A stretch of DNA of 64,000 nucleotides from Tubulanus polymorphus (taxonomy: Eukaryota > Animalia > Nemertea): the NCBI RefSeq assembly GCF_964204645.1, contig NC_134036.1, positions 9,465,859 through 9,529,858 on the forward strand, given 5' to 3'. The translations under genes and the position numbers were made by a program. The first letter of the stretch is position 1. Every line of letters begins with the position of its first letter. The notes beneath the pieces were generated by a model, which made no database searches, had not been told where the DNA came from, and was given only the letters and a program-made list of their open reading frames with translations. This document shows positions 19,176 to 58,874 of this stretch, in pieces.

Positions 19176-19470
19176 TAGAACGACGTAACTGCTATACGTT
19201 CGACCAATTCGAATCTAAGTTGAATTCATGATTCACGAGAATTAACTCAGTTCGGTATGCTCCGACCTGTTCACTACACGCATTATAGCAATGTAACTGT
19301 TTAACTGCATCTGAGTTGAATTCATGATTCGATTAAGTGTCAGAGGTGTGTGCACTGATTGTATCAATAGACCGACGATAAGTGCAAGCCATGACGTATA
19401 TTCATTTACGCACACAATTTATTGTTCGCAACAAATGAAAAACAAATTCTCAGAAATCTGACTGAAATTA

Positions 19471-27174: not shown

Positions 27175-27366
27175 GAGTAATAGGGATAATAGGCTTCCAG
27201 GTTAAAGGTCGAAGGGTCGAGCTCGTAAAAAAATGAAAATAACTATAATTTACAGTTGAATTAGTCGCGCACACTCCTAATTCAACTGCAAATTATTGTT
27301 ATTTTCATTTTTTACTCACTCGCCCCTTCAACCTTTAAACCTGAAAGCCTATTACCCCTATGACTT
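27175..27366. other. Long imperfect hairpin (~90-bp arms) upstream of pPolB
   Basis: GAGTAATAGGG...CAGTTGAATTAG / loop TCGCGCACACTC / CTAATTCAACTG...CCCTATGACT. Homologous hairpin at 56109-56236. Confidence 0.9.
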
Positions 27367-27643: not shown

Positions 27644-30600
27644 ATGGAAGCAAATAAGTACTACTGTCCAACATGTAATATCAATATAGATAAATCCCAA
27701 AAAGCAAGACACAATTAAACTAAAACACATTTAGAGAATAAATTGAAACTAGAATATAAAGATGATATATTAGAAACTAAATTAGATGAAATAAAGAATG
27801 AAAAAGAAACATACAAATGTGATACATGTAATCAAACATTCAGTGATAAAGATATTATAATGAACATTTAAAATCTAAAAGTCATATTAGAAAAAAGAAT
27901 AATGATGTTTTAGGTTAAGATTATTTTGATGAAGATAATGATAAGAAACAGAAGACAATTAAAAACATAAAAGATATATTAAACAATAAAAGACCATACA
28001 TGGAAGATGTAAGAAAATATATTAATTCATTAGATAATAAAAAAGATATAGAGATTACCGAAGCATTTAAAAGTGATATTGGCCCAGCAGCTATTGAGTT
28101 TAAATTTCATAAAGGAAAAACAGAAGAAAATAAAAAAACATTTAGAAAATATGAAAGAAATAATAAAAATAATTACAGATGTTGAATATCCTAAAATAAG
28201 TATATCTTCTAAAGTAAAGTTTATAAAATCTGAAGATAAACCAATATATAATATAAATTCTCATTCACAACATATTATATCTAAACAACATATAGATGAT
28301 AAATTAGATAAATGTTATAATGAAGTAAAAACTAAAATAGAAGAGAAATATTTTGAAGGATCTGGTTTAATATTTGATGAAATAATATTTATGACTTTAC
28401 ATGTTTATAACACAAAATATAATAAGTTAACTAAATCAAAACCAATTGATGAAAATAATGTATCATATTATAAAGAACCAGATATTGAAGCATCGAGTTA
28501 TATTAAACTACCATTTAAAACTAATGCTGTAATAAATGTACAAAATGAAGATGATAAATGTTTTCTATGGGTAATAATAAGTTGTTTACATCCTGCAACT
28601 TATAATATTTGTAGATTAACTCATTATAAACCATTTGAAAATAATTATAAGATAGATAAGTATCCTGTTATAAATAAAAACATCCCAAAGATAGAAAGAG
28701 ATAATAATTTAAGAATAAATGTATTTGATTTAATCAAATTACCAAATATAAAAGGTAACAACATAAAACATTATACATTAGAACCTTTATACCTATCAAA
28801 AGATTATGATTCAAACGATGTTATAGATATACTATATTATGAGAATCATTATATGTGGATTAAACAAATAGATTTATTCTTTAGAACAGAAAGTGATCAC
28901 CATAATAAAATATATCTATGTAGAAAATGTTTACATAAATTCAGTAATGAAAGTACATTATTAAATCATAAACAATTATGTGAAAATCATGATTATTGCA
29001 AATTTGTTTTACCAAATGAAAAGGATAAAATATTAGAATTCAAAAAATATGATTACAAAAATAAAGTACCATTTGTAATATATGGAGATTTTGAATCATT
29101 AAATAAGGAACTAACTGATCAAGATAGAAAAGAAATATATTATAACAGAAAGAAATTAAATTCTAATGAAAATTATTTTTCATATGAACCACCAATAACA
29201 AATACAATTAAAAAGATTCATCAATCAGCTTTTGGATTATATATTAAATCTGATTATCCAGAACTAATTGAAAGTGAATATTATGATTATAGAAATGAAA
29301 ATGTTATCAATCATTTTTGTGACTTATTAATTGAATATGAAATAAGATTTAGTAAATTATTGAATACAAATATAGAAATTATAATGACAGAAGAAGATAA
29401 AGAAGAATTTGCGTTTGCAGATAAATGTTATTATTGTGAAAAGATATTTAATTATAAAGATAAAAAAGTAAGAGACCATGATCATTTGAACGGAAGGTTT
29501 AGAGGCGCTGCACATGAGAATTGTAACTTACAAGCTAAGAAAATTAATTTTGTACCAGTTATATTTCATAATCTATCAGGATATGATGCACATTTATTCA
29601 TCAAACCGTTATGCCATAAAATAGAAGAAATTAATAATGAAATAGAAAGATTAGATTCAAATAGATCAAAAGATAAAATACCAACTTATAAATTTAGAAT
29701 GTTAGCTAAAACATCTGAGAATTACATATCATTCCAATTTGGGTGTCTAAGATTTATAGATTCATATAGATTTTTAAATAGTTCATTAGATAACTTATCA
29801 AAATCATTAGTTGATGATGAATTAAAGATATTAAAGCAACACTACCCAAATAATGATGATTTTCAATTAATGAGATATAAAGGCGCAATTCCATATCCAT
29901 TTTATAAATCACATAATGATTTTAACATAACTGAATTATTAAAAGAACAATTCTATGATGAATTAAAAAATGAATATGTTAAAGATGAAGTATATAATAG
30001 AACATTGAATATTTGGAATCATTTCAAAATAGAAAATCATGGACAATTAGTAGATTTATATTTGAAATCAGATGTATTATTATTAACCGATATATTAGAA
30101 AGGTTTAGAGATGTAAACCTAAAATATTTTAACATTGATCCATGTCATTGTTATTCATCACCAGGTTTACCATGGGATTGTGGATTAAAATTTACAGATA
30201 TAAAAATGGATTTGTTAACCAATATAGATCAATTATTATTATTTGAAGAATCTATAAGAGGAGGAGTTTCAGGTGTATTAGGTGATAGATATTTCAATGT
30301 AAATGATGACGCTGGATATAAGTTATTATATATAGATGCAAATAATTTGTATGGTTGGGCAATGATGGAACCACAACCTTATGGAGTATTTGAATTAACT
30401 GAAGTTTTACAGAATGAAAATAATGATAAATTTGATTGGAAGAAAATAATTCTAGATATTGCAGATGATTCAGATACTGGTTACTTCTTTGTTGTAGATT
30501 TAGAATATCCTGAACACATTAAATTTAAATCTAGAAATCTAGCTTACTGTCCCGAACATAAAACTGTCACACATGAAGAATTATCAAATTACCAAAAAAG

Positions 30601-31363
30601 AATTAAACCCGAAAATCATATTCATACAGAAAAGTTAATGGTAACTCAAGAAGATAAATATAATTATGTAGTACATTATAGAATGTTAAAGTTTTATCTA
30701 AAACAAGGAATGATCCTAAAAAAAGTACATAGTTATATTTCATTTAGTCAATCTAAGTGGTTAGAAAAATATATAGATTTTAACACCAAACAGAGAACTG
30801 AAGCTAAATCTGATTTTGAGAAAGATTTCTTCAAACTAATGAACAATGCATTCTATGGTAAGACTTGTGAAAATATCAGAAATAGAAATGATATTGAGTT
30901 AGTTAGTAATGGTAAAAGAATTAGACATTTACAATCATATCCTAAGTTCATTGGTAACAGAATATTTGATGACAATTTAGCTGCAGTTAAAATGAGAAGA
31001 ACATCTATGAAATTTAATAAACCAATTTATGTTGGTGCTTCAGTTTTAGAATTATCAAAATTACTAATGTATGAATTCTATTATAATGTATTACAACCAC
31101 TTTTTGGAGAAAAACATATAGAAATCTTATATTTTGATACTGACAGTTACATATTAAAGATAAAAACTGATAACATAACTAATGATTTAAAAACATTAAA
31201 ACATCATTTTGATTTCAGTAATTATCCTAAAGATCATGAATTGTTTAGCAATGATAATAAAAAAGTTCCCGGTAAATTCAAAGATGAATTAGGTGGCGAA
31301 GAAATGATTGAATTCATTGGTATTAGATCTAAAATGTATTTTTTTGATACTGATTTTTTTTAA
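27644..31363 (+). pseudogene. polB: Protein-primed family B DNA polymerase (pPolB), intein-free allele, with N-terminal zinc fingers and an inserted HNH/EndoVII-like domain; main ORF 28073-31363
   Basis: ExoI IYGDFES, CYYC..VRDHDH..GRFRGAAH..CN, FHNLSGYDAH, FIDSYRF, YIDANNLYGWAM (motif A), KLMNNAFYGKT (motif B), YFDTDS (motif C). The N-terminus from ATG 27644 (CPTC..H, CDTC..H) is broken by stops and frameshifts, and the C-terminal thumb is truncated. Confidence 0.95.
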
Positions 31364-31685
31364 GCGGCATTGTCGGTATTTCAGTATTGTTGAAGGCACA
31401 TGATTCAGTTGATAATTCGGATTCTGTTGTACTCGACGATGATCCGTTGATCTCGGGTAGCTTTACGCATGGAATGATTGGCTTCTCTAGGGCAAACGAT
31501 TCTAACTCCGGTACACACGGTGACTCAACGGCAGCTTCGAGCAGTGGTTTGGTCGCTCGAGCGTCGTCTTCTTCTATTTTTGACACAGCAGACGTTTTTC
31601 GTTTAACGGCAATTATCCGCGCGGAAGCGAATTTTTTTTTCACACCAGGTCCGCCATTTTGTTTCTCCATATGACATGCTATCAC
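31329..31685 (-). other. Unassigned CpG-rich ORF fragment abutting the truncated polymerase; possibly the 5' end of a host gene
   Basis: About 118 open codons of low-complexity Ser/Glu-rich sequence, CAAAATGGCGG and TCACGTGA promoter-like motifs, and a sharp composition change at 31340. No recognisable domain. Confidence 0.3.
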
Positions 31686-32065
31686 GTGATCTCAACATGT
31701 AAACACGCTAACTACCGGTATACATAAAACACGTGTTCCTTATAAATCTGGAATAAGTTGAATAACGAAACCCACTCAGTAACAAAACGAAAATTGGAGT
31801 CTAGAATATAATCCTTGATTATAATGTTAATAAAATTGGGGAATTATATGCTCAATTTTATTAATTATAATTTATACTGAAGTAGACACCGCGTGTAGAA
31901 GACGCTGTCCTCAATTATGCCAGATCCCAAAGAGTCTCAAGTCTAGACTTTTGTGTCCTTGTAAATAAAAAATTATACGGGGGAATATCCTCTTAGCCTC
32001 TGCAGGGAATCAAGTCTACGTCCTTGAGCTCCTTCTGAAGGGCCGAAAATAAATACAGGCCTCTT

Positions 32066-32295
32066 CATAGGCGTCGCCGGGATTTTTTTATGGGGGTCCG
32101 AATATCGGCAATTTGGTAAATCTAGTAAGGCAGCGAAGCTGCCTTTGACGAGGACCGAAGAAAATTTTGAAAATTAGGAGCGATTTAAAGCGTTTTCCCG
32201 CCACCTTGTGGAGTTTTTATATAGTAAAAAACGAAGAAACCTAGCCGAAAAAGGGGGTTCGTTCGCTCCCCCGAACCCCCCTGGCGACACCTATG
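32066..32295. mobile_element. MITE (hAT-like terminal inverted repeats)
   Basis: TIRs CATAGGCGTCGCC / GGCGACACCTATG. No clean TSD. Confidence 0.7.
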
Positions 32296-32667
32296 CTCTC
32301 TGCTGCCACCAGACTTCAGCACCACTCATAAGTCAGATATTTATCACAAATCAAACATTTATTTGCTAAACAAACAAGCCCAATCCTGGGCTTCCACACT
32401 ATTTGTCAAAGAAAATATCTATGAAAATGTAATACAAAATTAATTAGTTATTTACAAATACTGGTAGGGATCAGCAGTATGACAGCCTCAGATTGTCACG
32501 AAGAGAGACAAATTATTATATTGAAATCTTTACATAATATACTAATACATAAGATGCTATTTTATATATTTTGATAATACAGCAGTTATGAAGAGTGAGA
32601 CTTAAATGATTATTGCAGTATCTTTATACGGGGTGCAGCAGTTTAGGAACTAATGCTAACAGATTTG

Positions 32668-33105
32668 TCATAATTTGTCTGAATTTGGCTCACCAAGAGA
32701 GGAATTGTATGGGGAATTGTTTACAATGCTATGATACTTGCTCAGGTGTCCATCCATTTCTTTGGTATACCATATCTTTTTCTTGAGGGTTTTAAACCAG
32801 GTATCCTCCCTCTCAACCTCAATTTGTATCTGACGCCAACTTTGAATAATATGACAGAAAGAAAGAGCTCCACGATCATATGAACAATGCGAAAATTTAA
32901 CAATATGATTGGGCTTGGAGTCCAATATCTTGATAAGAGTGGTGCATACATTTTCTGGCAGAATGGACGGATACTTTAAAAGATCACCAACTTCAGCAGA
33001 ATGTTTCTCCACGACAGTGAACTGTCCAAAACTGGTCGGCGGAATACGCAATTGACTGATTCTCCTGCGGGAAATATTTTCATATGCTGTGTCAATATCA
33101 GGCAC
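32668..33105 (-). CDS. Probable terminal exon of an unidentified host gene or gene fragment
   Basis: Acceptor TCTTTATTACAG| followed by 145 open codons (VPDIDTAYENISRRR...SDKL*) with globular composition. Other exon-like pieces at ~33648-33736 and ~34085-34266 lie on the same strand. Confidence 0.45.
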   Translation of the reverse strand: MPDIDTAYENISRRRISQLRIPPTSFGQFTVVEKHSAEVGDLLKYPSILPENVCTTLIKILDSKPNHIVKFSHCSYDRGALSFCHIIQSWRQIQIEVEREDTWFKTLKKKIWYTKEMDGHLSKYHSIVNNSPYNSSLGEPNSDKL

Positions 33106-34759
33106 CTGTAATAAAGATAATAGCCATAAGAAATATTGTACAGATTTACATATAACATCATATACCAATCAACTGACATGACTATCTGAACAGAGTTTTT
33201 GTAATTCCCTACTTTTTCCCGGATTCTATCAAATTTTGATCAATTCCCTGACTTTTCCCAACCGGGAATTCAATTTTTAAATTCCCTACTTTTTCCCGTT
33301 TTCCCGGTAAGCTGGGAACCATGCATTAATGGCGGCCAGTCAGCAACAAGAAACTCGTCCAAGATATTTTATGCCCAGTGCGAAGACAGGAAACCACAAG
33401 AGGCCCTCGACAGGGTGTTTGTATGCTGTATTCCAAGGAATTTGGCATATGTAATCTGGAAAATATCCCTGTATTCCGTATTCCGATGGCAAAACAAGAC
33501 AGTTTTCTCCTTGTATTCCAAGAATTTCAGCAAAATCGACAATTTTCAGCTTTTTATGCTGTATTCCACTTCAAATTAGTATTCCGTATTCCATGACCCC
33601 CTGTAGAGAACCTCACACAAAGGACTTGTGATATAAAATCAACTTACCGTTACTATAGCTGAATCCATACTTGTTATCTAAGCATTGTTCACATTATTTA
33701 ATAACTACATTTTAGTATCACGATAATATTCTTTGCCTAAAATTAAAACAGAGAAATTTGGTTGGCATCTTATGTGAATTTGACCAAAACTGTCTGATTT
33801 ATGAGGTGCCGCACGTTTTTAAATAGGACTCGTTGCGTCTTGGGAGGTTGATGGAGCAGGCGTCTGAAGCGCTAGAGTGTAAAGCCTGCGGAGGTGTTCT
33901 CTGCAAATTTTGGGAGAAGATCTACACAACTCGGTATTGCGGCTTATCACACTCAACACATACACTGTCATGATTTTAGGCCTATATGTTTACAATAGAC
34001 ATTAATTGGCTTCAAAAGTTTAAGTTGCAAATTCTTAATAGAATCTTAATAGTTCAGATTTCTACCGTCACAGTTTGAGCCTACAAATGAGGGAGCTGTG
34101 GTCTGACAGCGGGGGTCTGACACTGACAGGCCAAATTTTGGGCAATTCCGACATTTCTTATATTCCCAAATAATAGTTTCTCTGATGAAGATAAATTCCT
34201 ATTAATCATTTCGTCCCCACTAATGACACGTAGCCTAGGACAGTTTACAGCTTTTGGGTTTTCCAACTCATAAATAAAAAATTGTCACTTAATGGTAATA
34301 TATAAAGTAGAATGTACATGTATATATACATATTCTTGTATAACGAATAAGTCTAATGCTTATGTTGTGTTGTGTTTTATTCTATTTTATATCATTTTAT
34401 TTTTGTTACAATTGCATTGCATCTACAATCATGTATGATAATAAAGAATTGAATTGAATTGAATTAAAGTCAAAGAAGGAAAAACGTGCCTGTAAAAAGA
34501 ATGAAACCATTAACTTACTTCGGTTTCCTACTGGTCTGAGACGCGAAGCTGGCAAGTAGTCAATCATGGTCAATTGGCTGGCGCTAGGCCTCCTACCACA
34601 GCTTATATTTAGTCAAGAGTCGACAGTAGATTTTGTCGTTCACATCATGGATTTCTTCATGCATTGCGACATGCAGTCCGGAAGCGAAACTGAGTTGGGC
34701 ATGCGCAGTGGCTATCTGACATGGTGTGAAAAAAAAATTCGCCGCGCGGAACCATCCGG

Positions 34760-35982: not shown

Positions 35983-35989
35983 TAATTAA

Positions 35990-38900
35990 TAAAATTAATA
36001 ATTTAAAAATATATGTATTCGAATTAATGCAATAACCAAAGACAAAAGGTGAAAATATTAAGGATTATACATTGGAAGCTTTATATTTAACAGAATATTA
36101 TGATGATGAAAATGCTATAGATTTGTTATATTACAAAAAAGATGAAAATGAACATTATATGTGGTTAAAACAAATTGATTTATTCTTTAGCACAGAAAGT
36201 GATTTTAACAGGCATAAAATTTATCTATGTAGAAAATTTTTATCTAAATTTAGAACTGAGAATGCTTTACTAAAACATAAAGAATTATGTGGTAATAAAG
36301 ATTTTTGTAAATTTATAATGCCAACAGAAAAAGATTATAAATTGAAATTTACTAATCATAAATTTAAGAATATTGTTCCATTTGTAATTTATGGGGATTT
36401 TGAATCGTTCAATAAAGAATTAACTGATCAAGATAGAAAAGAAATATATAACAAAAAGCAATTATTAAAATCAATGGATAAAGGAAATGAATTAAATGAA
36501 GACACAACACAAGATCCGCCAATTATAAACACAATTAAAAAAGTTCATCAAAGAGCTGCTGCTTATGGAATTTATATGAAATCAAATTATCCTGAATTAT
36601 ATGAAAGTCAATATATTTCTTTTAGAGGTGAAGATGTAGTTAATGATTTTTGTGACAAAATGATTGAATTTGAAAGTGATTTTGCAAAATTATTAAACAA
36701 AAATAAAAGAATAGTTATGACAAAAGAAGATGAAATTGATTTTAATTATGCAACTCATTGTTGTTGTTGTGAAAAAAACGTTTTCATTCATTTGATAAAA
36801 AAGTAAGAGATCATGATCATTTAAATTCAAAATATCGTGGAGCTGCTCATGAAGATTGTAATTTACAAGCTAAGAAAGTTAATTTCGTACCAATATTATT
36901 TCATAATTTATCAGGCTATGATACCCATCTATTTATAAAACAATTATCGAGAAAATTGGGCGCAATTAATCAAGAAATAGAAGAATATAATGCTATGAAT
37001 GGTGTAAATGTAAGAACTATTAGCTAAAACATCCGAAAATTATATTTCATTTCAATTTGGTTGCATTAGTTTTTTAGATTCTTATAGATTTCTTGCAAGT
37101 TCATAAGATAATTTATCAAAAAGTTTAGTTGATAATGATTTTATAATAACTCGATATTATTATCCAAATGAACAAGATTTTAAATTATTGAGATATAAAG
37201 GTGCAATTCCTTATTCATTTTATAAAACACACAATGATTTTAATGTAACAGAATTATTAAAAGATCAATTTTATGATCAATTAAAAGAGGAGTATGTGAA
37301 AGATGAAGTGTTTAATAGTACATTAAATATTTGGAACCATTTTAAGATGAAAAATCATGGTGAATTAGTTGATTTATACTTAAAATCAGATGTTATGATA
37401 TTGGCTGATATATTTGAAAAATTTAGAGAAGTTAATTTGAATCATTTTAATGTTGATCCTTGTTATTGCTACTCTAGTCCTGGTTTAACCTGGCAATGTG
37501 GTTTAAAATACACAAATGTAGAATTAGATTTATTAAAAGAACCAGACATGGTTTTATTATTTGAAAAATGAATTAGAGGTGGAATTAGTGGTGTTATGGG
37601 AGATAGGTATTTTAAAGCAAATGATGAATATAAATTATTATATATTGACGCCAATAATTTATATGGTTGGGCAATGATGCAACCTCAACCATACACAAAT
37701 TTTATATTGACAGAAGTTGAAAATGATGATAAAACTGATTGGGAAAGCGCAATTGCGAGTTTAAAAGATGAAACACCAATTGGTTATTTCTTTGTAGTTG
37801 ATTTAGAATATCCTGAAAATATAAAGTTTAAAACAAGAAACTTACCTTATTGCCCAGAACATTTAACCGTAGATGATAGTTATTTAAGTGAATACCAGAA
37901 GAAAATAAAACCGAAAGATCATGTTTTTACAGAAAAATTAATACTTACTCAAAATAATAAATACAATTATATTGTTCATTATAGAATGTTAAAATTTTAT
38001 CTAAAACAAGGAATGAAATTAAAGAAAGTACATAGATATATTGAATTTTTAATCAATCGAAGTGGTTAGAAAAATATATAGATTTCAATACTCAACGGAG
38101 AACCATATCAAAAAAAGATTTTGAAAAAGATTTCTTCAAATTAATGAATAATAGTTTTTATGGTAAAACATGCGAAAATATTAGAAATAGAAATGATATT
38201 GAATTAGTAAATAATTCTGAACGATTAAGACATTTACAATTAAGTCCTAGACATTTAGGAAATAAAAGATTTGAAGATTAGTTAACAGCAGTTAAATTAA
38301 AAAGAACGTCAATGAAATTTAATAAAGCTATATTAATTGGTTCAACTGTTTTAGAAGTATCAAAATTATTAATGTATGATTTTTATTATAATGTTTTACA
38401 ACCACTTTTTGGGGAAAAGCATATTGAAATATTGTATTTTGATTCTGTAACAGCTGACACCCCAATATTATTAAAATGTAATGATAAAATATTGATAAGA
38501 AGAATTTCAGAAATAATTCCCAAACAAAATGAATGTTATATTTCATATGGTGAAAAAGAATTAATACAAATAAATGGTTTAATGGATGTTTGGACAAGAA
38601 ATGGATTGAAAAAATTAAAGAATATTATTAGGCATAAAACAAATAAGAAAATCTATAGAGTTAGAACTAAATTAGGGTTTGTAGATGTTACAGAAGATCA
38701 TAGTTTAACTAAACGAATTGGCGATGAAATAAAACCAACTGATATAAACATTGGAGATGAATTATTACATAAAAGATTTTTCCAAAGAATGAATCATATG
38801 TCATTCGACGAAATTATTGATAATATTCATAATATAGAACCTGAAACATTAGAAGAAAAAGAATATTTTATCAAAGGATTTTTCATGGGTGATGGTTCAG

Positions 38901-39964
38901 CAGGTGCGTATAATTATGTTTGGGGTAATAAATATTGTTGGTATTTATGCAATCAAGACTTAAAATTATTAGAAAGAATTAAGAAATTCTGTGAAGAAGT
39001 TTATTCACATAAAACATTTAGAATCATGGATGTTATGAAATCATCAGCAGTTTATAGAATACTTGTAAATAATCCTAAAGATTTTGCTATAAAATATAAT
39101 GATGAATTCTATATTCATGCAATAGTGAAAAGTAATACTTCAACAAAAGAAAAGATAGTTCCAGATTATGTATTAAATGCAAAAAATTATTTAAGAAAAT
39201 GGTTCTTCATTGGATTCTACGCAGCAGATGGTGCTAAAAAATTTACAAAGGATAAAAAGAAAACCTTTGCACAGATAGGAAAAGTTGCTTTATCGGGGTT
39301 AAATATATTATGTAATTCATTAGGCTTCAATATGAATATTGGATTGATTAAATCTAAAGGAAATTGCTTTAATTTAAGCCACACAGAAAAAGATTTAACT
39401 GAAGAAGTTAAAGATTTATTTGAAATATATAACCCAACAGATTATGTTTATGATTTATCAACCGAAGATGGCACATTCACCTGTGGATTTCCATTAATTT
39501 GCTTCATTACTGATGCGTACATACTAAAAATCAAGACAAATGACATAACAAAAGACATAAAAACATTAAAACATCATTTTGATTTTAGCAATTATCCCAA
39601 AGATCATGAACTATTTAGCAATGATAATAAACAAATTCCTGGTAAATTTAATAATGAATTAGGGGGTGATGAAATGATTGAATTTGTTGGGATAAGAAGT
39701 AAAATGTATAGTTACAGAACAAAAGATCATGAAGCTACAAAGTTAAAAGGAATAACAAAGCATGTGGTTGATAAACATATAGAATTTCAAGATTATATAA
39801 AGTGTTTATATAACTCAATTGTAATGAAACACAAAATGAATTGTTTAAGATCAGAAGATCACGAGATGTACATTAATGAAGTTGAAAAAACTAGTTTGAA
39901 TCCATTTGATGATAAAAGGCATATTTTAGATGATGGTATAAAAACATTACCTTATGGTTATTAA
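35990..39964 (+). pseudogene. polB: pPolB, intein-containing allele; several frameshifts and stops upstream of the intein
   Basis: Collinear with copy A: IYGDFES, VRDHDH..YRGAAH..CN, YIDANNLYGWAM, KLMNNSFYGKT, YFD[intein]TDA, GIRSKMY, KLKGI, DDKRHIL.DGI.TLPYGY*. Fragmented into ORFs 36072, 37188, 37596 and 38312. Confidence 0.95.
38444..39508 (+). mobile_element. Intein (355 aa) with LAGLIDADG homing endonuclease in pPolB motif C
   Basis: In-frame 1065-bp insert absent from copy A. Block A SVTADTPIL, block B VDVTEDHSL, LAGLIDADG motifs FIKGFFMGDGS and FFIGFYAADGA, block F YVYDLSTEDGTF, and +1 Thr. The terminal residue reads Ile (ATT) where Asn (AAT) is expected. Confidence 0.95.
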
Positions 39965-41357: not shown

Positions 41358-42020
41358 ATGGTAGAATTAAAAGAATACAGAATATTTGTTGATTCTAGAA
41401 AACTTTCAAATTATAAATCACATAATTTACTAATACAATTAGATAGAGAATTTGAGAATTGTGTTGATTTAAAATTAGTAAATATAAGTTTATGTAACTC
41501 ATTTTACAATATATCGGATAAAAGTCTAGAACATTTAATTTTTTCAATCTTTTACAAAAAAAGGAATAAATGTTTTTTTATATATTTAAAACCAGGATTA
41601 TATAATTTAGATACATTAGCACAAGAGATTAAATGAAAAGCTCGAGCTGAATTAGGAAGTGATTCCGGATTTAGTATTAGATTTTCAAAAAGTCATAGTT
41701 CTAATAAAAGAAGGTAGATCAAATTTAATGCCTTTTACACACTTTTATATTTATTGCAATTTAATCGATCCTACACAAACATTTGATTGAAGCAACTAAA
41801 GATAAAACTTGCAATTCTAGTATACTAAATATTTTTACCATTAAAAAATGTTAAACAATTTGGAACTCAAATAAATTTTAATTTAACAGAATGTGATTTT
41901 AAACTTTGCATTCCACATTTCAATAATTTCAAATTAGAAATAAGAAATCATAATGGTTATTTAATTGATTTAAATAACTTTCCTGTGATATATGAATTAG
42001 TTATAAGATGTAGAGAGTAA
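41358..42020 (+). pseudogene. Minor capsid protein (penton)-like, disrupted
   Basis: IFVDS..L.IQL......LKLV.....NSFYNIS...YLKPGLYNLDTL, then FYIYCNLID and FKLEIRNHNGYLIDLNNFPVIYEL in downstream frames. This pattern is typical of Polinton single jelly-roll proteins. Confidence 0.7.
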
Positions 42021-43523: not shown

Positions 43524-44836
43524 ATGGTAGATAGTTTTCCAAAAGCTTTCCAATATTATAAATCAATTAAATATAATATTCCAGCAATAGATTTTACTAA
43601 AGATATTTCATATAGAAATGAAGTTTTAAATTCATTAATTGATTTATATATTTATGTTACTGAAAGTAATAATTTTCATGTAAAGATGGAAAATATATTC
43701 AATGTTTATGAAATTAATTTTAAAGATTTAAATGAGGCAAAACAATGGTTATTAAAATCTTATATGAAGTATTGGCAGAACCAATTAAATTTTGCTGTTT
43801 ATTGTGCAACAACAGGATGTGGAATTAGTTGGAATGATCATTTGAATAAACCAAGTTTACCATTGATGTTATCACTTTTTAGATTGCATACTTATTTTCA
43901 AATAAAATTAATATTAGATGAATTAGAATGTCCTTTACCAGGTTCAAAATACTTTAATGAACTAAATAATAATATTAATTTTTCAAAGTTTTATAAATTA
44001 TGTAATGAATTTAATATTAATTCAAATAAAGATTTTAGAGCAAAAATTGGAACAATGGGTGGATTAGGAATATTATATACTAAAGAATTTGGAAAAATAA
44101 GGACAAATTCAGATATAAGAACACTAAATTGGAATGAATTACCAAAATATTATAATAATATACAACAACAAAACAATAATGGTTGGGTTAATTTCATTTT
44201 AGAAAATATTGAAGGTTTTACTAAAGCTGGAATACAAAGAATAAATCAAACTTATTTGATATGTATTTTAGGCGCTCAAGTTGAAACAAGATCACCAATA
44301 GTTGGAAATGATAACACTTCATTTGATGCGCAGAAACAATTCAAAGTATTATTTGAAGATTCCATTCATAATGATAAAAATAGATCGATTCCAGAAAACA
44401 TTGTAAGATATCAAAATTATTTAGATAAATCTCATGTAAGACTAAATTATTGTATAGGCCCTAAACTTTTAATTATTGCTAATGATTTAGTACTAAAGCT
44501 GGGAAACATAATTGGTTATAATAATCTAACTAAACTGCAACAGTAAATAATTCATTTGGGTTGAATGATATAAATAAAAAGATTATTACTGCCCCAAAAT
44601 TAATGGAAGGTGAAAAAAATAAAAAACATATTCAATCAACAGAAACTAAAACTAAGAATATTAAATTCAATAATGATTCTAAACCGGATTATAATACATC
44701 AGAAAATATTAAAACTGATAATATTCAACAGGATATAATTAAAACTGATAATGATAATAAATTCCATGAAAATACTAAATTAGCTTTAACTTGTATAGGA
44801 ATTGTAATCGGAGGAATGTTATATTTTAAATTTTAA
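43524..44836 (+). pseudogene. Conserved Polinton hypothetical protein with a C-terminal TM anchor; ORFs 43524-44546 and 44561-44836 are probably one frameshifted gene
   Basis: YWQNQLNFAVYCATTGCGIS motif. The second ORF lacks both an ATG and the TAAATG motif and ends in LALTCIGIVIGGMLYF. Confidence 0.65.
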
Positions 44837-44851
44837 TTTTTTATTATATAA

Positions 44852-46308
44852 ATGGATGTAGAAGGTGGAGAAGATATTGGAATGGATACTTTTGATGAAC
44901 CTGGCATAACTGATGAACAACAACCTGATTTTAGTGAAACAAGTTTTAATGACGGTAATGAGCCAGAATATAATAACAATTTAAATATGCCTGATTATAT
45001 TAAAAATGCAGAATCACAATTAAATCCTGAAAATTTAGACCCAGATTTAGTAAAACAAGATTTAGAAAATTTAAACAAAATACCTAAATTAGAACGTATA
45101 ATTGAAAATTCTAAATTTAACATAAATGATGAAGACGTTGGACCTTTAGCAGATAAATTAAAATTTTTAGATAATGGTAAATGGTATTATCATTTGAAAG
45201 ATGATTATTATATTGATATCACTTTTAAAAATGAAAACAAAATATTAGCAAAATCAACTTTAGACAAATTAGAACCAGGTAGAATTAAAAGAACTAGTAA
45301 TAGTAATGTAATAACTGATGTTATAAAACAAGAATTAACTGTAAATGATATAGACGTATTTAAACAAAAAATTAATGAATTATTTGACAAAATCAAAAAG
45401 AAATCAGAAACAGAAATAACTTCTGAACATAATATAACTTCCAATACTAGTAAACTTAAATCAAATAAATTGAAAAACTTTTACCGAATGGATTAATTGA
45501 TGCAACAGATCAAGAATTAGAAGATTTAAATAATATATTTTCTGTTGAAGCAATTAGAGAAATAAAAAGTATATGACTTGCATCTGATAAAATTGCGCAT
45601 GATATAAGTATAAGAGATTTTAAAATTCGAACTTTAGAAAAAGAATTAACTGATAAAAATAAAGAAATAGAACAATTAACGTCTGATTTAGATCATCAAG
45701 TAATTGATGTAATAGAATATAGGCAAAAAGAATTACGTTTAGAAAAAGAAATAGATGATTTAAAATATAACATAGAATTACAAAAAGAAAAAATTAAATT
45801 ATTATTAAAATCATATGATTATAATGTTAATAGATTAAAAGTTATTTTTAAAGATTTGTTGATAAAACCAAATTCTGAAATATCATTAAAAGATAGAATA
45901 AAGTTATTATTTAAATTAGAAGGAATAACAATTCTTTCAATTCTAACAGCTGTAACTATGTTATTTACAGCAATTGGTTTAGCAATATCAAATTCTTTGA
46001 AATCTACTCCTACTCCCAATAAACCGGATAAACCCCCGAATGATAATAATTCTATACAAGATAAAGTTAAGGATGGTTTAAAGAAATTAGCCAAATATTT
46101 ATGGGAACTATCTAAAAAATCTGCTGCAGCATTACCCGGAATTATTGCATCAATTGTTGGTTTTATATTGAAATCTGCAGGTAATATTCTTAACTTTGCT
46201 GCTGAACATATTATTTCATTTTTAATTACAGTTGTAAGTGCTATTATTTTTGGGTTAGTGAATATGATATCAAAAAGATATCAAGAAAAAGTAATAAAAA
46301 ATAAATAA
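44852..46308 (+). pseudogene. Large Polinton protein (acidic N-terminus, coiled coil, C-terminal TM segments), disrupted into ORFs 44852-45496 and 45856-46308
   Basis: Single TAAATG start, coiled-coil-like coding between the two ORFs, and EGITILSILTAVTMLFTAIGLAI...KSAAALPGIIASIVGFIL. Confidence 0.65.
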
Positions 46309-46328
46309 TTAATTTTTTTGTTAAATAC

Positions 46329-46707
46329 ATGAGTGGGAGTTATATAAGTCCTTCTAAGATTTCTAGAATATCTATGCTATTAAAGCAGAAAGATCACATC
46401 ATATAATTACTCATAATCCTTCAAATATTAATCCCGATGAAACTTTATATGTTAGAATTCCTAGATTAACACAAAATACTTTTTATGTTCCAAATAGTAT
46501 TTATTTATCAGCCGATATAAAAGTAACTGGTCATGATAATAATTGTGTTGTCGATAATGTTGGGAGATATTTGATTAAAAAATTAACTATAAAGATTGGT
46601 CCAGAAACAGTTTTCTCATTAGATGATTATAATTTATTTATGCATTATAAAGATTTATGGTTAACTAAAGAAAATAGAAATAATATGATATTTCAAGGCA
46701 TTCAATC
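46329..46707 (+). pseudogene. Major capsid protein (double jelly-roll) N-terminal third, frameshifted and truncated
   Basis: ERSHHIITHNPSNINPDETLYVRIPRL...YVPNSIYL...VVDNVGRYLIKKL.IK...VFSLDDY.LF.HYKDLWLT...R.NMIFQGIQ, matching my recollection of invertebrate Polinton MCP N-termini. Composition breaks at ~46707. Confidence 0.72.
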
Positions 46708-47207
46708 GTCCGTCGCGTCACTGTCTAATATCCGGCGTTTAACATTCAATTTCAATCGATGTTTCAGGTGAAATCCTGAACACTCGTTTATCGAGTACGA
46801 TCACGTTTTTTTCCCCGTGAAGTTTGCTATTAAAACGTTTATGCCCGATGTTTGCGAGGTTCAGGCTGTACATTGATACCAGCAAGAGTCACTTGCACCG
46901 CAATCGGTCGAATATACTCCGCACATTTATTGAAGATTTTCAATAAAAAAAAACTAAAATAAAACTGCAAGTTTCAAAAGTCTTTGCATTTTGAAAACAA
47001 CTCAAAGCTGATCGCCATTGCTTTACTAAAACGACGAAGAACGCAAATAAATACCTTGACAAGCGATGTGGCCTTCTCCCTGTACAAAGCCCTACAAGTT
47101 CAACAACGAATACGTATTTGTATTGAATATATCCGCATGTAATTATTGGGCAACCCCCTAGAATATCTGTCCCTACGCCCAATCGCACCCCCTAACCTCA
47201 TTATTAC

Positions 47208-47288
47208 CTGTATGTAGTTGGCGTTGATATAGTCGCTATAAGGATCAGCGCCAGTCTCAACTTCCAGCACGACTCGAGAGGCATCATC
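47208..47288 (-). pseudogene. Orphan exon of a classical (receptor-type) protein tyrosine phosphatase
   Basis: DDASRVVLEVETGADPYSDYINANYIQ (PTP motifs DxxRVxL and DYINA) followed by donor CAG|GTAAT. The acceptor AG is missing. Confidence 0.82.
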
Positions 47289-48086
47289 AAGAGAGGCACT
47301 CATTGCATGAGTGTACACATGCAGGCTTATGGCGAAATCCTGTTACAAATTGAACCAGAGAAATATATAATACCCGTTATTGTAACGGTTCATAGAATAT
47401 GAAAGATATCGGCAGAGTGGAGGACACAAACCTACCCTACCGGTCGTGACACGCATCCACAAGTGAAGAAGGCAAGGCGCAAGATCAAACTATGGCTCCA
47501 AGGTCTTTTAGTTCTGGAGTGTTATACACATTAACGGTAATTGTATTTTACTGAAGTGTTACCGGAATATGCGGATTTAAGTTTTATGAAGTCAATCAAA
47601 CTATGAATCAATGATTAATAAATGATTACATGACTTCATTTCTACAGCGGATTTTCATACAGAAATATTTCTCGTCCAGCTACAATAAAGTTTTGATAAA
47701 CTACTGTTTGTATTTGTGTGTTGTATACAAAATGACCAACGAAAATGAAAAGATTCAACAATTTGTAGAAAGAACATGTAGATTTTCCAAACTTTTTGTT
47801 TTATTATATATTTGCAGCTGTATAACAATCGAATTTCACTAACTGAATATCACACTGTTACCAGGCCACAGTAAATACGGTTTCAAGTTGTATGACTACG
47901 TGGGGTGGGGGATAAGGGGGCAGGGGAGTATATTTAATGATTAAAAGGCCGCGGTTCATAGGAACCATTTTACACTAATAGGTCCATTGACACGATTTTC
48001 AAGGGCAGTGATTTCTTGATTAATTTCCAATTCTCAAGCAAAATGTCCTACTATAAATCGATGTGAATAAAATTTTAAATCAGTGG

Positions 48087-49034
48087 TTATTTGATTGAAT
48101 TTCTACAGCAGATTTTCATACAGAAATATTCACGAATTTCTCGTCCCATTAAAAGATATATGTAGAAATTTACCACATAGTTACACATTAGGAATTGTGT
48201 GAAAATGTCATATAGAAATTCTTTCTGTTCCGTAAGGATTGGTAAAAATGCAGCGATAGTGGTTGGAAGTGTGAATATTGCAAATGCGAGTGAAACTGTT
48301 ACAAGCATCATTGTTGTACGTTTCGATTTTGTAGTTTTCTTATCAGACGAAAGCATTTTTGTTCCTCTGAATAACTGAATAATTATGATAGAATTTGATA
48401 TCAGAATCGACGATAAAGGCAAAACAAAAGCGTAGAAACCAAGTGGAGTAAGAAATTTCATTTGGACAATTAATTCATAGTAACATCCGAAAAACTGGTC
48501 GGAAAAATGTATCGACAAAGTAGCGGGAAGTTGAACCAGTACAGTCACTGTAGTAATTATCAATATAGCAAATCTAGCGAATCTAGGCGTGCATATCAAA
48601 CGAGAAGTGAACGGAAAGAGAACAACTGCCGCACGTTCTAGAGATATAGCTACCAATAACCAGGAACTGCTAGAATTGGCAACTGCCATCAATATTTCAT
48701 ATATCTTACAACTGATCAGTGAATTCATGATGAATACAAGACTAGTATTTAGATTCAATAGAATAAACTGTAAAACAGGCATCAGTGTAAAATTTTTGCA
48801 GTACAAGAAATCACAGACTGACAAAATGACAAGATAGTTAGCGTAAGATAAACTGCGGAATTTGCGACTTGTCATTATAAGAAAAGTAGCTGATTTTCCA
48901 AAGACTCCAAACAGAAACACGATAGGCAGAATGACCAACGACACAGTACGGTAAGTTCCAGACCTGTTCTCCACCGACATTAGAATGATGTAACTGCTAT
49001 ACGTTCGGCCAATTCGTATCTTAGTTGAATTCAT
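48087..49034 (-). CDS. Single-exon class A GPCR, peptide-receptor-like, open frame (315 aa; second Met MSVENRS may be the true start)
   Basis: Seven hydrophobic segments, LSVCD, C at the top of TM3, SLERAAVVLFP, FAIFTLP, NFYIY and a C-terminal CC. TM1 GN is changed to GK. Confidence 0.88.
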   Translation of the reverse strand: MNSTKIRIGRTYSSYIILMSVENRSGTYRTVSLVILPIVFLFGVFGKSATFLIMTSRKFRSLSYANYLVILSVCDFLYCKNFTLMPVLQFILLNLNTSLVFIMNSLISCKIYEILMAVANSSSSWLLVAISLERAAVVLFPFTSRLICTPRFARFAILIITTVTVLVQLPATLSIHFSDQFFGCYYELIVQMKFLTPLGFYAFVLPLSSILISNSIIIIQLFRGTKMLSSDKKTTKSKRTTMMLVTVSLAFAIFTLPTTIAAFLPILTEQKEFLYDIFTQFLMCNYVVNFYIYLLMGREIREYFCMKICCRNSIK

Positions 49035-49666
49035 GATTCACGAGAATTAACTCAGTTCGGTATGCTCCAGACCTGTTTACTACACGCATTATAGCAATGT
49101 AACTGTTAAACTGCATCTGAGCTGAATTCATGATTCGATTAAGTGTCAGCGGTATGTGGACTGATTGTATCAATAGACTGAAGCTACGTGCAAGCCATGA
49201 CGTATATTCATTTACGCAAGCAATTTATTGTTCGCATCAAATGAAAAACAAATTTTCAGAAATCTGACTCAATTTACTCAGATTCAGTAAAAATTTATCA
49301 CCCCATTGGCACTCAAGCTGTCCCTATCCCCCCAGACTTATACTACTCAAATCCCGAATCCGCCCGGCACTTTTTTCGTATGCCGCACGAAAACGGTTAT
49401 AGAAGGATTCGAGCCCAATAGCTTATGATAAACTACACGCCTAAGTCCTTGAAATACCGTACATAAATCAACATCCTCCTACTTCAGTTTCTCGAGTATT
49501 TCAAATTTGAACATGATACATCTGGGCGCTCACTTCGAATCCAAGTAAGTTGGGATTAATTTCGGGGGAGAAAAGGACATGATTTTGGTGGCCCGCCTCA
49601 TCAAATCTTACATCATATGAAAACCTTGACTATTTACTACAAATTACTACATTTACTACAAACTTA

Positions 49667-52444
49667 CAGGTTCAAAATACTTTAATGAACTAAATAATAA
49701 TATTAATTTTTCAAAGTTTTATAAATTATGTAATGAATTTAATATTAATTCAAATAAAGATTTTAGAACAAAAATTGGAACAATGGGTGGATTAGGAATA
49801 TTATATACTAAAGAATTTGGAAAAATAAGGACAAATTCAGATATAAGAACACTAAATTGGAATGAATTACCAAAATATTATAATAATATACAACAACAAA
49901 ACAATAATGGTTGGGTTAATTTCATTTTAGAAAATATTGAAGGTTTTACTAAAGCTGGAATACAAAGAATAAATCAATCTTTTAGAACTTATTTGATATG
50001 TATTTTAGGCGCTCAAGTTGAAACAAGATCACCAATAGTTGGAAATGATAACACTTCATTTGATGCGCAGAAACAATTCAAAGTATTATTTGAAGATTCC
50101 ATTCATAATGATAAAAATAGATCGATTCCAGAAAACATTGTAAGATATCAAAATTATTTAGATAAATCTCATGTAAGACTAAATTATTGTATAGGCCCTA
50201 AACTTTTAATTATTGCTAATGATTTAGTACTAAAGCTGGGAAACATAATTGGTTATAATAATCTAACTAAACTGCAACAGTAAATAATTCATTTGGGTTG
50301 AATGATATAAATAAAAAGATTATTACTGCCCCAAAATTAATGGAAGGTGAAAAAAATAAAAAACATATTCAATCAACAGAAACTAAAACTAAGAATATTA
50401 AATTCAATAATGATTCTAAACCGGATTATAATACATCAGAAAATATTAAAACTGATAATATTCAACAGGATATAATTAAAACTGATAATGATAATAAATT
50501 CCATGAAAATACTAAATTAGCTTTAACTTGTATAGGAATTGTAATCGGAGGAATGTTATATTTTAAATTTTAATTTTTTATTATATAAATGGATGTAGAA
50601 GGTGGAGAAGATATTGGAATGGATACTTTTGATGAACCTGGCATAACTGATGAACAACAACCTGATTTTAGTGAAACAAGTTTTAATGACGGTAATGAGC
50701 CAGAATATAATAACAATTTAAATATGCCTGATTATATTAAAAATGCAGAATCACAATTAAATCCTGAAAATTTAGACCCAGATTTAGTAAAACAAGATTT
50801 AGAAAATTTAAACAAAATACCTAAATTAGAACGTATAATTGAAAATTCTAAATTTAACATAAATGATGAAGACGTTGGACCTTTAGCAGATAAATTAAAA
50901 TTTTTAGATAATGGTAAATGGTATTATCATTTGAAAGATGATTATTATATTGATATCACTTTTAAAAATGAAAACAAAATATTAGCAAAATCAACTTTAG
51001 ACAAATTAGAACCAGGTAGAATTAAAAGAACTAGTAATAGTAATGTAATAACTGATGTTATAAAACAAGAATTAACTGTAAATGATATAGACGTATTTAA
51101 ACAAAAAATTAATGAATTATTTGACAAAATCAAAAAGAAATCAGAAACAGAAATAACTTCTGAACATAATATAACTTCCAATACTAGTAAACTTAAATCA
51201 AATAAATTGAAAAACTTTTACCGAATGGATTAATTGATGCAACAGATCAAGAATTAGAAGATTTAAATAATATATTTTCTGTTGAAGCAATTAGAGAAAT
51301 AAAAAGTATATGACTTGCATCTGATAAAATTGCGCATGATATAAGTATAAGAGATTTTAAAATTCGAACTTTAGAAAAAGAATTAACTGATAAAAATAAA
51401 GAAATAGAACAATTAACGTCTGATTTAGATCATCAAGTAATTGATGTAATAGAATATAGGCAAAAAGAATTACGTTTAGAAAAAGAAATAGATGATTTAA
51501 AATATAACATAGAATTACAAAAAGAAAAAATTAAATTATTATTAAAATCATATGATTATAATGTTAATAGATTAAAAGTTATTTTTAAAGATTTGTTGAT
51601 AAAACCAAATTCTGAAATATCATTAAAAGATAGAATAAAGTTATTATTTAAATTAGAAGGAATAACAATTCTTTCAATTCTAACAGCTGTAACTATGTTA
51701 TTTACAGCAATTGGTTTAGCAATATCAAATTCTTTGAAATCTACTCCTACTCCCAATAAACCGGATAAACCCCCGAATGATAATAATTCTATACAAGATA
51801 AAGTTAAGGATGGTTTAAAGAAATTAGCCAAATATTTATGGGAACTATCTAAAAAATCTGCTGCAGCATTACCCGGAATTATTGCATCAATTGTTGGTTT
51901 TATATTGAAATCTGCAGGTAATATTCTTAACTTTGCTGCTGAACATATTATTTCATTTTTAATTACAGTTGTAAGTGCTATTATTTTTGGGTTAGTGAAT
52001 ATGATATCAAAAAGATATCAAGAAAAAGTAATAAAAAATAAATAATTAATTTTTTTGTTAAATACATGAGTGGGAGTTATATAAGTCCTTCTAAGATTTC
52101 TAGAATATCTATGCTATTAAAGCAGAAAGATCACATCATATAATTACTCATAATCCTTCAAATATTAATCCCGATGAAACTTTATATGTTAGAATTCCTA
52201 GATTAACACAAAATACTTTTTATGTTCCAAATAGTATTTATTTATCAGCCGATATAAAAGTAACTGGTCATGATAATAATTGTGTTGTCGATAATGTTGG
52301 GAGATATTTGATTAAAAAATTAACTATAAAGATTGGTCCAGAAACAGTTTTCTCATTAGATGATTATAATTTATTTATGCATTATAAAGATTTATGGTTA
52401 ACTAAAGAAAATAGAAATAATATGATATTTCAAGGCATTCAATC
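49667..52444 (+). mobile_element. Duplicated Polinton B segment (ORFs 49783, 50298, 50589, 51593 and the MCP fragment 52066-52444)
   Basis: Translations are identical to those of 43939-46707 apart from a 3-aa indel (SFR) and one substitution. Confidence 0.93.
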
Positions 52445-52944
52445 GTCCGTCGCGTCACTGTCTAATATCCGGCGTTTAACATTCAATTTCAATCGATGTT
52501 TCAGGTGAAATCCTGAACACTCGTTTATCGAGTACGATCACGTTTTTTTCCCCGTGAAGTTTGCTATTAAAACGTTTATGCCCGATGTTTGCGAGGTTCA
52601 GGCTGTACATTGATACCAGCAAGAGTCACTTGCACCGCAATCGGTCGAATATACTCCGCACATTTATTGAAGATTTTCAATAAAAAAAAACTAAAATAAA
52701 ACTGCAAGTTTCAAAAGTCTTTGCATTTTGAAAACAACTCAAAGCTGATCGCCATTGCTTTACTAAAACGACGAAGAACGCAAATAAATACCTTGACAAG
52801 CGATGTGGCCTTCTCCCTGTACAAAGCCCTACAAGTTCAACAACGAATACGTATTTGTATTGAATATATCCGCATGTAATTATTGGGCAACCCCCTAGAA
52901 TATCTGTCCCTACGCCCAATCGCACCCCCTAACCTCATTATTAC

Positions 52945-53025
52945 CTGTATGTAGTTGGCGTTGATATAGTCGCTATAAGGATCAGCGCCAGTCTCAACTT
53001 CCAGCACGACTCGAGAGGCATCATC
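52945..53025 (-). pseudogene. Duplicate of the orphan PTP exon
   Basis: Identical to 47208-47288. Confidence 0.82.
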
Positions 53026-56108: not shown

Positions 56109-56236
56109 TAAGTAATAGGGAATATATTGTTTCAAGCCAAAGGTCGAAGGGTCGAAAAATAATTTCTCGCACACTCGAATTTATTTTTCGACCCTTCAAC
56201 CTTTAACTTGAAACAACTTATTCCCTATTACTCTTA
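56109..56236. other. Long imperfect hairpin (~56-bp arms) homologous to 27175-27366
   Basis: AGTAATAGGGAA...AAAGGTCGAAGGGTCGAAAAATAA / loop CGCACACTC / TTATTTTTCGACCCTTCAACCTTT...TTCCCTATTACT. Confidence 0.9.
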
Positions 56237-56664: not shown

Positions 56665-58533
56665 ATGGAAGCAATGAGAAATACCATTGTCCAACATGTA
56701 AAATCAATATAGATAAATCCCAAAAAGCAAGACAGAATAAAACTAAAACGAATTTAGAGAATAAATTGAAATTAGAATATAAAGATGATACATTAGAAAC
56801 TAAATTAGAAGAATTAAAGAATGAAAAAGAAATATATAAATGTGATGAATGTAATCAATCACTCAGTAAGAAAAGATATTGAAAAGAACATTTAAAATCT
56901 AAAAGTCATATTAGAAATATGAATAATGATATTTTAGGTGAAGATTATTTTGATAAAGATAATGATAAGAAACAGAAGACAATTAAAAGAATAAAAAATA
57001 AATTAAACAATAAAAGATCATACATAGAAGATGTTAGAAATTATATTAATTCATTAGATAATAAAAAGAGATAGATATAACTGAAGCATTTAAAAGTGAT
57101 ATTGGTCCAGCAGCTATTGAGTTTAAATTTCATAGAGGTAAAACATTAGAAGAAAAAAAAACATTTAGAAAATATGAAAAATATGATAAGGATAATTACA
57201 GATGTAGAATACCCTAAAATTAGTATATCTTGTAAAGTTAAATTTATAAAATAAAATGTGAAGATAAACCAATATGTAATATAAATTCTCATTCACAACA
57301 TATCATATCTAAACAACATATAGCTGATAGATTAAATGAATGTTATAATGAAATAAAAAGTAAAATAGAAGAGAAATATTTTGAAGGATCAGGTTTTATA
57401 TTTGAAGAAATAATATTTATGGCTTTACATGTTTATAACACAAAATATAATAAGTTAACTAAATCAAAACCAATTGATGAAAATAATTTATCATATTATA
57501 AAGATGATAATATAAATGGATCAAGTTATATCAAAATACAATTTAAAACTAATGCTGTTATAAATGTACAAAATGAAGATGATAAAAGTTTTCTATGGTC
57601 AATAATTAGTTGCTTACACCCAGTTGAAGATTATAAACAACATAGTTTTAGATTAACACATTATAAACCATTTGAAAATGATTATCAGATAGATAACTAT
57701 CTTGTAAGAATTAAAAATATCCCAAAAATAGAAAGAGATAAAATTACCAAAAACATAAGGTAACAATATAAAACATTTTACATTAGAGCCTTTCTATTTA
57801 TCAAAAGATTATGATTTAAATGGTGTTATAGATATATTATATTATGAAAATCATTATATGTGGATTAAAAGAATTGATTTATTTTTTAAATCAGAAGATG
57901 ATTTTGATTATAAAATATATCTATGTAGAAAATGTATAACTAAATTCAAAACTGAAAGTGCATTATTAAATCAATTATGTGAAAATCATGATTATTGTAA
58001 AATGGTTTTACCAAATGAAAAAGATAAAGTATTAGAATTCAAAAAATATGATTACAAGAATAAGGTACCATTTGTAATATATGGAGATTTTGAATCATTA
58101 AATAAAGAATTAACTAATCAAGATAGAAAAGAAATATATTATAAAAGAAAGAAATAAAATTGTAATGAAAATGATGTAATTGATTATTCAGATCCTCTAA
58201 TAACAAATAATATTAAAAAGATTCATCAATCAGCTGCAGCTTTTGGATTATATATTATATCTGATTATCCAGAATTAATCAAAAGTGAATATTATATTTA
58301 TAGAAATGAAAATGTTATCAATCATTTTTGTGAATATGAAATGAAGTTTAGTAAACTAATAGATACAAATATAGAAATTATAATGACAGAAGAAGATAAA
58401 GAAGAATTTGAGTTTGCAGATAAATGTTATTATTGCGAAAAACTATTTAATCTAAAAGATAAAAAAGTAAGAGACCATGATCATTTGAATGGAAAGTTTA
58501 GAGGCGCAGCGCATGAGAATTGTAACTTACAAG
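56665..58533 (+). pseudogene. polB: pPolB 5' half (zinc fingers, terminal-protein region, ExoI, HNH-like), heavily disrupted
   Basis: Aligns by eye with 27644-29533 (NAVINVQNEDDK.FLW, VPFVIYGDFES, VRDHDHLNGKFRGAAHENCNLQ). Confidence 0.92.
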
Positions 58534-58874
58534 TGTAACCGGCTGGTTGTTGTATCGGCAGGCTAGCTGGGCAACTAGCATTTACACCAGCGGTACATGA
58601 TTTCATCCATCAGGAACAACAAGGCAGTTAAACCTTATGTACAATCTTTATTGCATCCCGGAATGAGAATGATTATCATAGCTTTACATAGTCTTTATAT
58701 ACAGAATCATGAGTATAATGTGAGAACTAGGTGTCAGACAAGTTGTAGACATCAGGACTCACAAACAAACACCTAGTGACACGTTTGAGAGACATTAATT
58801 GATTATCGATGAGCACTGACTATAGCTAATTATTGTGAAAACATATTGAGTAATGTCACATGTTGATTACGACT

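Follow-up and report, generated by a model that had tools for sequence, protein, structure and literature searches.

The 64,000-nt stretch of DNA analyzed here (hereafter the window) contains, at 38444..39508 on the plus strand, an intein that interrupts motif C of a DNA polymerase of family B (PolB) and of the protein-primed type (pPolB) in an endogenous Polinton-like element. Taking all lines of evidence together, we think it quite probable that this intein, which combines a Hint domain with a LAGLIDADG endonuclease, represents a multi-copy family in a likely animal genome, that the family originated from giant-virus-type polymerase inteins and has likely spread by homing, and that the copy at these coordinates (the window copy) is probably inactive.

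The insert comprises 1065 bp, i.e., 355 codons without a stop, and sits in frame between YFD and TD within a 550-aa open reading frame (ORF); at the local base composition, an open frame of 355 codons has a chance probability of about 2e-16. Both boundaries are fixed because an intein-free sister pPolB in the window (28151..31363, plus strand; 74% DNA identity; cut off near 31340) has an unbroken YFD/TDS, with the empty site at 31138/31139. The initial annotation of this DNA, which was made from the sequence alone, had described a 1065-bp in-frame insert at YFD/TD, and the open frame and the intein-free paralogous site confirm it. The motifs it had listed were each found in place, all on the plus strand: block A with the Ser1 nucleophile (SVTADTP, 38444..38464; Ser1 is nearly invariant across 49 aligned rows), the block B TxxH (TEDH, 38690..38701; invariant across the 49 rows), the first LAGLIDADG helix in block C (GFFMGDG, 38876..38896; acidic residue D150, model helix 136-150), the second in block E (GFYAADG, 39212..39232; acidic residue D262, model helix 248-266), and block F (VYDL, 39446..39457; its Asp is invariant in the alignment). 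The window copy thus has the block A nucleophile, the block B TxxH, the block F Asp and, immediately after the insert, the +1 nucleophile (Thr).

Profile searches with the 355 aa agreed with this assignment: the intein N-terminus model TIGR01445 scored 31.3 bits against a cut-off of 24.5, and the Pfam families Intein_splicing (E 1.4e-7) and LAGLIDADG_3 (E 4.5e-4) fell narrowly below their cut-offs. A structure model built from the 49 rows (predicted local distance difference test, pLDDT, 88.7; predicted TM-score, pTM, 0.90), which superseded a poor earlier model from 6 rows (pLDDT 55.6), has a Hint fold that is split around the two-motif endonuclease. Foldseek placed endonuclease-bearing inteins at ranks 1-5 (E 2.7e-14 to 7.6e-11), the top matches all being of this class; mini-inteins and I-DmoI (root-mean-square deviation 3.2-5.0) were among the further matches, and the profile search was concordant. 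By translation, profiles, structure model and fold search, the insert is a true Hint + LAGLIDADG intein.

The intein is present in raw whole-genome shotgun reads and in contigs of two studies under one species label; four of the 11 listed sequencing runs contain 38-43% of sampled window words, all under that label. In a raw whole-genome shotgun run from another study (X6, about 12% of reads used), depth at 90% likeness was about 260 over the N-extein, 140-220 over the intein and 450-590 over the sister family, against about 50 in the lowest bins, which are themselves transposon-like and make the depth-based copy number a floor. At 85% likeness, the intein was covered about 200-260 times in its first 730 bp and 110-180 times in the remainder. 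Of the 3802 X6 reads on the intein, just 62 have at least 99% identity; with such high depth and so few near-identical reads, the intein resides in many diverged copies. The last codon differs from that of the window copy in 93 of 98 reads, so its defective end (see below) is particular to this copy or to a minority. Alleles with an empty site were directly seen as intein-skipping joints (8, 13 and 16 X6 reads). The initial annotation had placed the intein in the germline of its host, and a multi-copy intein family within the organism's own reads is supported by depth, read diversity and skip joints. At 27176, where the intein-free element has its left end, flanks are unrelated in 527 reads (agreement 0.36), as many insertion sites would produce; these reads belong to the sister family, and for the intein family itself the multi-copy state is seen as high depth and read diversity. 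One contig (X2) joins the intein end to sister-like C-extein sequence; it is ambiguous and was not counted.

Among the relatives of the intein, 334 longer proteins were matched, the five best being pPolB hosts or fragments thereof (45-61% identity), followed by inteins of RNA-primed PolBs at about 40% identity or less. A whole-library search retrieved 1816 representatives at E ≤0.001; in the best 150 of these, the ones that could be classified by their flanks were not pPolB-borne, except for fragment P0179. Only relatives of the RNA-primed type, at ≤42% identity over the full length, were obtained from 37 viral loci and from the best 80 of 234 metagenome loci. For the phylogeny, 41 rows were selected from 236 extracted inteins, and in the resulting unrooted tree seven of seven pPolB inteins lie on one side of a branch with 100/100 support; a 75-row tree, also unrooted, recovered the identical group (SH-aLRT, the Shimodaira-Hasegawa-like approximate likelihood-ratio test, 99). 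P0177, which is nearly without extein, was assigned by its flank and neighbours, and the tree labels pPolB1 and pPolB2 are our own and not literature groups. The pPolB inteins adjoin a set with a common GFPL end motif, which includes P0017, whose intein is 99.7% identical to that of a locus from a giant-virus metagenome-assembled genome (L002), and four inteins (P0011, P0012, P0013 and P0224) in a compact, unclassified PolB type. As far as these sequences indicate, the intein lineage likely derived from giant-virus-type polymerase inteins. Alignment and tree also support the statement of the initial annotation that the motif C site is common to inteins of giant-virus-type PolBs; we take it to be the site labelled 'Pol-c' in InBase.

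Some further relatives were observed. The exteins of P0011, P0012, P0013 and P0224 are 20-34% identical to giant-virus and Polinton types, and the P0011 contig is up to 236 kb long. Related inteins (27-32% identity) occur in type II topoisomerases, i.e., at a non-allelic site (P0108, P0111 and P0120-P0122). Another genome set with abundant decayed copies is suggested by numerous broken pPolB fragments that contain an intein (P0177-P0195; contigs of 14-825 kb; clusters of 55 and 14 members).

Several observations are signs of homing. Upstream of the site, the polymerase of P0007 shares only 22-28% identity with the others, yet its intein is 46-49% identical to theirs and nests inside the pPolB group (96/86). 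In the P0004 cluster (136 members), the 15 listed members comprise seven filled, four empty and four without a detected site, on contigs of 57 kb to 1 Mb. Its filled and empty alleles, compared as proteins, are 98-99% identical apart from a fixed tract at the site, where no residue is common to the two states at three of the last seven N-extein columns and eight of the first 44 C-extein columns (positions -7, -6, -2, +3, +4, +8, +9, +23, +30, +39 and +44); such fixed differences occur at none of the remaining 1034 N-side and 106 C-side columns (1191 columns in total). A tract of this kind is what homing would be expected to produce. In the P0006 cluster (121 members), the 15 listed members include three filled and one empty, and the empty allele is identical at 498 of 500 residues upstream of the site. 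On the extein tree, the five filled rows among 29 require five changes, and both catalytic acidic residues are kept across the pPolB intein clade.

The mechanism that we propose would have begun with a single homing event, in which an intein of an RNA-primed PolB recognised the conserved DNA of motif C in a co-infecting Polinton and inserted itself there. Intact relatives would splice by the class 1 pathway, with an acyl shift at Ser1, transfer to the +1 Thr and cyclisation of the terminal Asn; this would rebuild the catalytic YxDTD motif and keep the polymerase usable. In an element without the intein, the endonuclease would cut the empty site; a filled copy used as the repair template would then pass on the intein with some of its flank. 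Dozens of related elements per nucleus could serve as donors and targets, which would rarely be available to a single-copy animal gene. At least one jump may have reached a distant pPolB lineage, and copies that remain integrated would decay, the window copy included.

Several findings weigh against this reading or narrow it. The window copy ends in Phe-Ile, its block G (39485..39508, plus strand) is degenerate and has the lowest model confidence (residues 350-355), and it lacks the terminal Asn that class 1 protein splicing requires and that is present in six of the six other aligned pPolB-borne inteins. With this Asn absent, the window copy is probably unable to splice; the description 'full-length' in the initial annotation holds for size and domains and fails at the splicing end. 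The N-extein (35985..38443, plus strand) encodes a broken pPolB with an Endonuclease VII-type (HNH) domain and a missing 5' end, and it is interrupted by three frameshifts (about 36773-36800, 37012 and 38046) and four in-frame stops (36033, 37104, 37569 and 38279); the polymerase hosting the window intein is a pseudogene. The C-extein (39509..39964, plus strand), by ORF translation, begins with the +1 Thr and retains an open C-terminal polymerase part. Because of the missing Asn and the frameshifts and stops of the N-extein, the window copy is probably dead and most likely a fossil. Moreover, no integrase, ATPase or protease was found among the scanned element ORFs of the window, and all three copies of the element there (the third is described below) are truncated; for these reasons we use the wording 'Polinton-like', and membership in the Polintons is partial. 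The trees are unrooted, and the direction, from giant virus to Polinton, is taken from the much higher diversity on the RNA-primed side. The comparison of filled and empty P0004 alleles covers proteins only, in 11 of the 136 members, and the tract could instead mean that the empty alleles carry a target variant resistant to cutting, which would likewise suggest that the nuclease is active. Among the listed contigs and reads, none runs from the intein-bearing locus into host DNA. Finally, among the hosts with an HNH-type domain, the intein tree equals the extein tree, ((window,P0003),(P0004,P0005)) with P0006 outside, and intein identities (46-66%) are about the same as extein identities (38-70%), a pattern that repeated homing explains no better than a single old gain followed by several losses.

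Two related ideas were considered and found unsupported. One was that the intein is of more recent date than the broken polymerase in which it lies (at the rate of the N-extein, with six breaks used, 1065 bp would stay free of breaks with a probability of 0.07), and the other was that the endonuclease of the window copy is clearly decayed (it departs at eight of the 85 columns invariant in the other six inteins, whose own range is 3-13).

The agreement of trees and the similar identities among the five HNH-type hosts are what would be expected if a Polinton lineage had gained the intein a single time long ago, followed by vertical descent and repeated precise loss, with homing now rare or extinct. 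The 120 best homologs of the empty paralog also comprise one filled, 64 empty and 55 without a detected site, although an empty query biases this ranking. However, P0007 breaks the congruence of the trees, recent local exchange is implied by the tract fixed next to the site and by pairs of filled and empty alleles with 99.6% identity, and both catalytic acidic residues are retained across the clade, whereas unused homing endonucleases are expected to decay. We therefore regard a purely vertical history as unlikely. For the closer hosts, the matching trees and comparable identities of inteins and exteins nevertheless indicate that the intein is long resident in that lineage, and co-descent with losses explains part of its patchiness. 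The spread among Polinton-type polymerases that the initial annotation proposed is supported by relatives, clusters and tree, with long co-descent accounting for part of the pattern.

A different concern is that the elements come from a non-animal source (a symbiont, a protist or a free virus) and were merged into the assembly of an animal, given the lack of a listed contig or read crossing the element-host junction of the window copy and the short pieces in which marine metagenome contigs (X5) also match the stretch. This seems very unlikely to us, because the intein is deep in raw whole-genome shotgun reads and contigs of two studies under one species label, the reads are mostly 85-99% alike, as expected of an old family of repeats and not of a single clonal virus, the sister element end has many different flanks, and the element alternates with remnants of transposons and shares a duplication with a G protein-coupled receptor (GPCR) gene. 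From gene content (peptide-receptor-like GPCRs, long interspersed nuclear element (LINE) and Helitron), the host is very likely an animal. Even less probable than a non-animal source, to the point of being hardly credible, is that the insert does not splice and has been domesticated as an endonuclease domain of the polymerase, comparable to the HNH and VSR insertions of other pPolBs. Polinton pPolBs do bear such nuclease inserts (10.1101/2023.08.22.554363), and the window copy is without a terminal Asn; against this, the insert splits a catalytic motif and would be expected to inactivate any product from which it is not spliced, six of six relatives keep canonical ends, and 93 of 98 reads are unlike the window copy in the last codon. 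A homing intein of giant-virus-type origin in a Polinton-like pPolB is therefore the reading that we prefer. In its boldest form it would mean that animal germlines carry homing inteins that are derived from giant viruses, still home among the Polintons of several animal genomes, have jumped to distant lineages and act as a natural gene drive within a multi-copy endogenous virus family; for this wider claim we see the balance as about even.

With regard to the element itself, the sister pPolB matches PF03175 (protein-primed PolB, E 5.7e-14), and the atlas clusters nearest to one close relative are 94-100% eukaryotic. A third pPolB copy (57242..58535, plus strand) is partial and broken and stops short of the intein site. 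Downstream of the intein-bearing polymerase lie small ORFs without assigned function and then a truncated fragment of a likely double-jelly-roll (DJR) major capsid gene (46367..46771, plus strand; duplicate at 52104-52505), for which Pfam Capsid_N (E 0.002) is under the cut-off and atlas leads give weak support (DJR-like and Capsid_N in 10-20% of members). The search of viral and metagenome loci retrieved no relatives of the pPolB or of this capsid fragment. Broken ORFs at 41358-42020 resemble, by eye, a Polinton minor capsid gene, a label unsupported by any profile match. A PHROG integrase match (E 0.01) on a coiled-coil ORF at 45577 is weak and was taken as chance. The sister copies begin with AG within long palindromes, at the left end of the intein-free element (27176..27364) and ahead of the third copy (56111..56233); the intein-bearing copy has lost both ends. 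These palindromes fold as single DNA hairpins (-59.6 and -43.6 kcal/mol, z about -15) with a common loop motif, and strand-switch joints occur in reads at 27175; the element-end palindromes may be replication-origin hairpins.

Outside the element, a host-type rhodopsin-family GPCR gene (48087..49034, minus strand; 7tm_1 E 1.5e-17) has a further copy at 53824-54771 and a broken one at 18270-19214, and its best solved matches are cholecystokinin (CCK), bradykinin and galanin receptors. A 5.7-kb tandem duplication (43939-49646 and 49667-55382, 99.8% identity) spans element genes and the GPCR gene and is either very recent or an assembly artefact; the third GPCR block (17454-19604) is 88% alike. 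A 3.1-kb insertion at 31616-34742 with 25-nt inverted ends, which is skipped by 33 X6 reads and by X1 and X2 contigs, is a polymorphic DNA transposon. A broken Helitron (6993-15092, minus strand) retains pieces of Rep, PIF1 helicase and DUF6570. Visual inspection of ORFs also pointed to remnants of LINE-, Penelope- and Gypsy-like elements in the surrounding DNA.

Inteins have been stated to occur in every kingdom except the metazoan nuclear genome (10.64898/2026.09.14.751524 and PMC8529194, in the parts available), and a multi-copy intein family in a likely animal genome would be an exception to this absence. The metazoan barrier may be a shortage of homing donors and targets, both of which a replicating multi-copy element provides. 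The family would also be a physical trace of co-infection by a Polinton and a giant virus, and the presence of filled and empty alleles in one family would allow rates of homing and tracts of conversion to be measured in the animal assemblies that already exist. Among the top-ranked records of the literature searches (subscription papers, Repbase, InBase and bioRxiv supplements lay outside its coverage), no Hint-type intein in a pPolB or Polinton or in animal nuclear DNA was found, and the available parts of PMC12220804, PMC8502044, PMC13768754, 10.64898/2026.10.13.758929, PMC5718144 and PMC3671162 contain no such intein. Within this scope, the novelty proposed in the initial annotation stands, and the case would be the first Hint-type intein in a protein-primed polymerase.

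The nearest precedent is the set of inteins in endogenous giant-virus-like polymerases on nuclear scaffolds of Klebsormidium, Tetrabaena and Hondaea, together with Pol delta of Chloropicon (PMC10710043, seen in part). As here, the intein reaches a eukaryotic nucleus inside or from a virus polymerase, and the Chloropicon protein is one of our matches (P0103, 32% identity); in contrast, in the parts seen, the hosts are algae or protists, the polymerases are viral-like or cellular and not Polinton pPolBs, and no animal is named. Polinton, Maverick and Metazoa are unmentioned in the two supplements of that paper that were searched. The motif C inteins of Nucleocytoviricota polymerases (Phycodnaviridae, Iridoviridae and Mimiviridae; 67 listed in the part seen of PMC5784728) share with the window intein the site (YGD/TDS), Ser1, the +1 Thr and the Hint + LAGLIDADG architecture, are 33-44% identical to it and are adjacent to it in the tree. 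Their hosts, however, are RNA-primed PolBs of large viruses, whereas here the intein resides in a PolB of the protein-primed type (PF03175), which belongs to a small integrating element with many nuclear copies. Inteins of invertebrate iridoviruses, in a paper cited in PMC5784728, show that inteins already occur in viruses infecting animals. A nuclease domain inside a Polinton polymerase is also known from the HNH and VSR inserts of pPolBs (10.1101/2023.08.22.554363), for which one sentence of PMC11071308 uses the term possible 'intein invasions', and the window polymerase has an HNH-type (Endonuclease VII) domain as well; in the available parts of these papers no Hint or LAGLIDADG domain is reported, whereas in the present case the active site is split by a complete intein and there are alleles with an empty site. 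Over both domains, the best structural matches are the archaeal PI-PkoII, TliVMA, PhoVMA and PI-PfuI and the yeast PI-SceI, which have other hosts and 13-18% identity, and direct ancestry is not implied. Set beside these systems, this is a real intein with a known mechanism in a new kind of host, and the picture drawn in the initial annotation holds for the family and not for the window copy.

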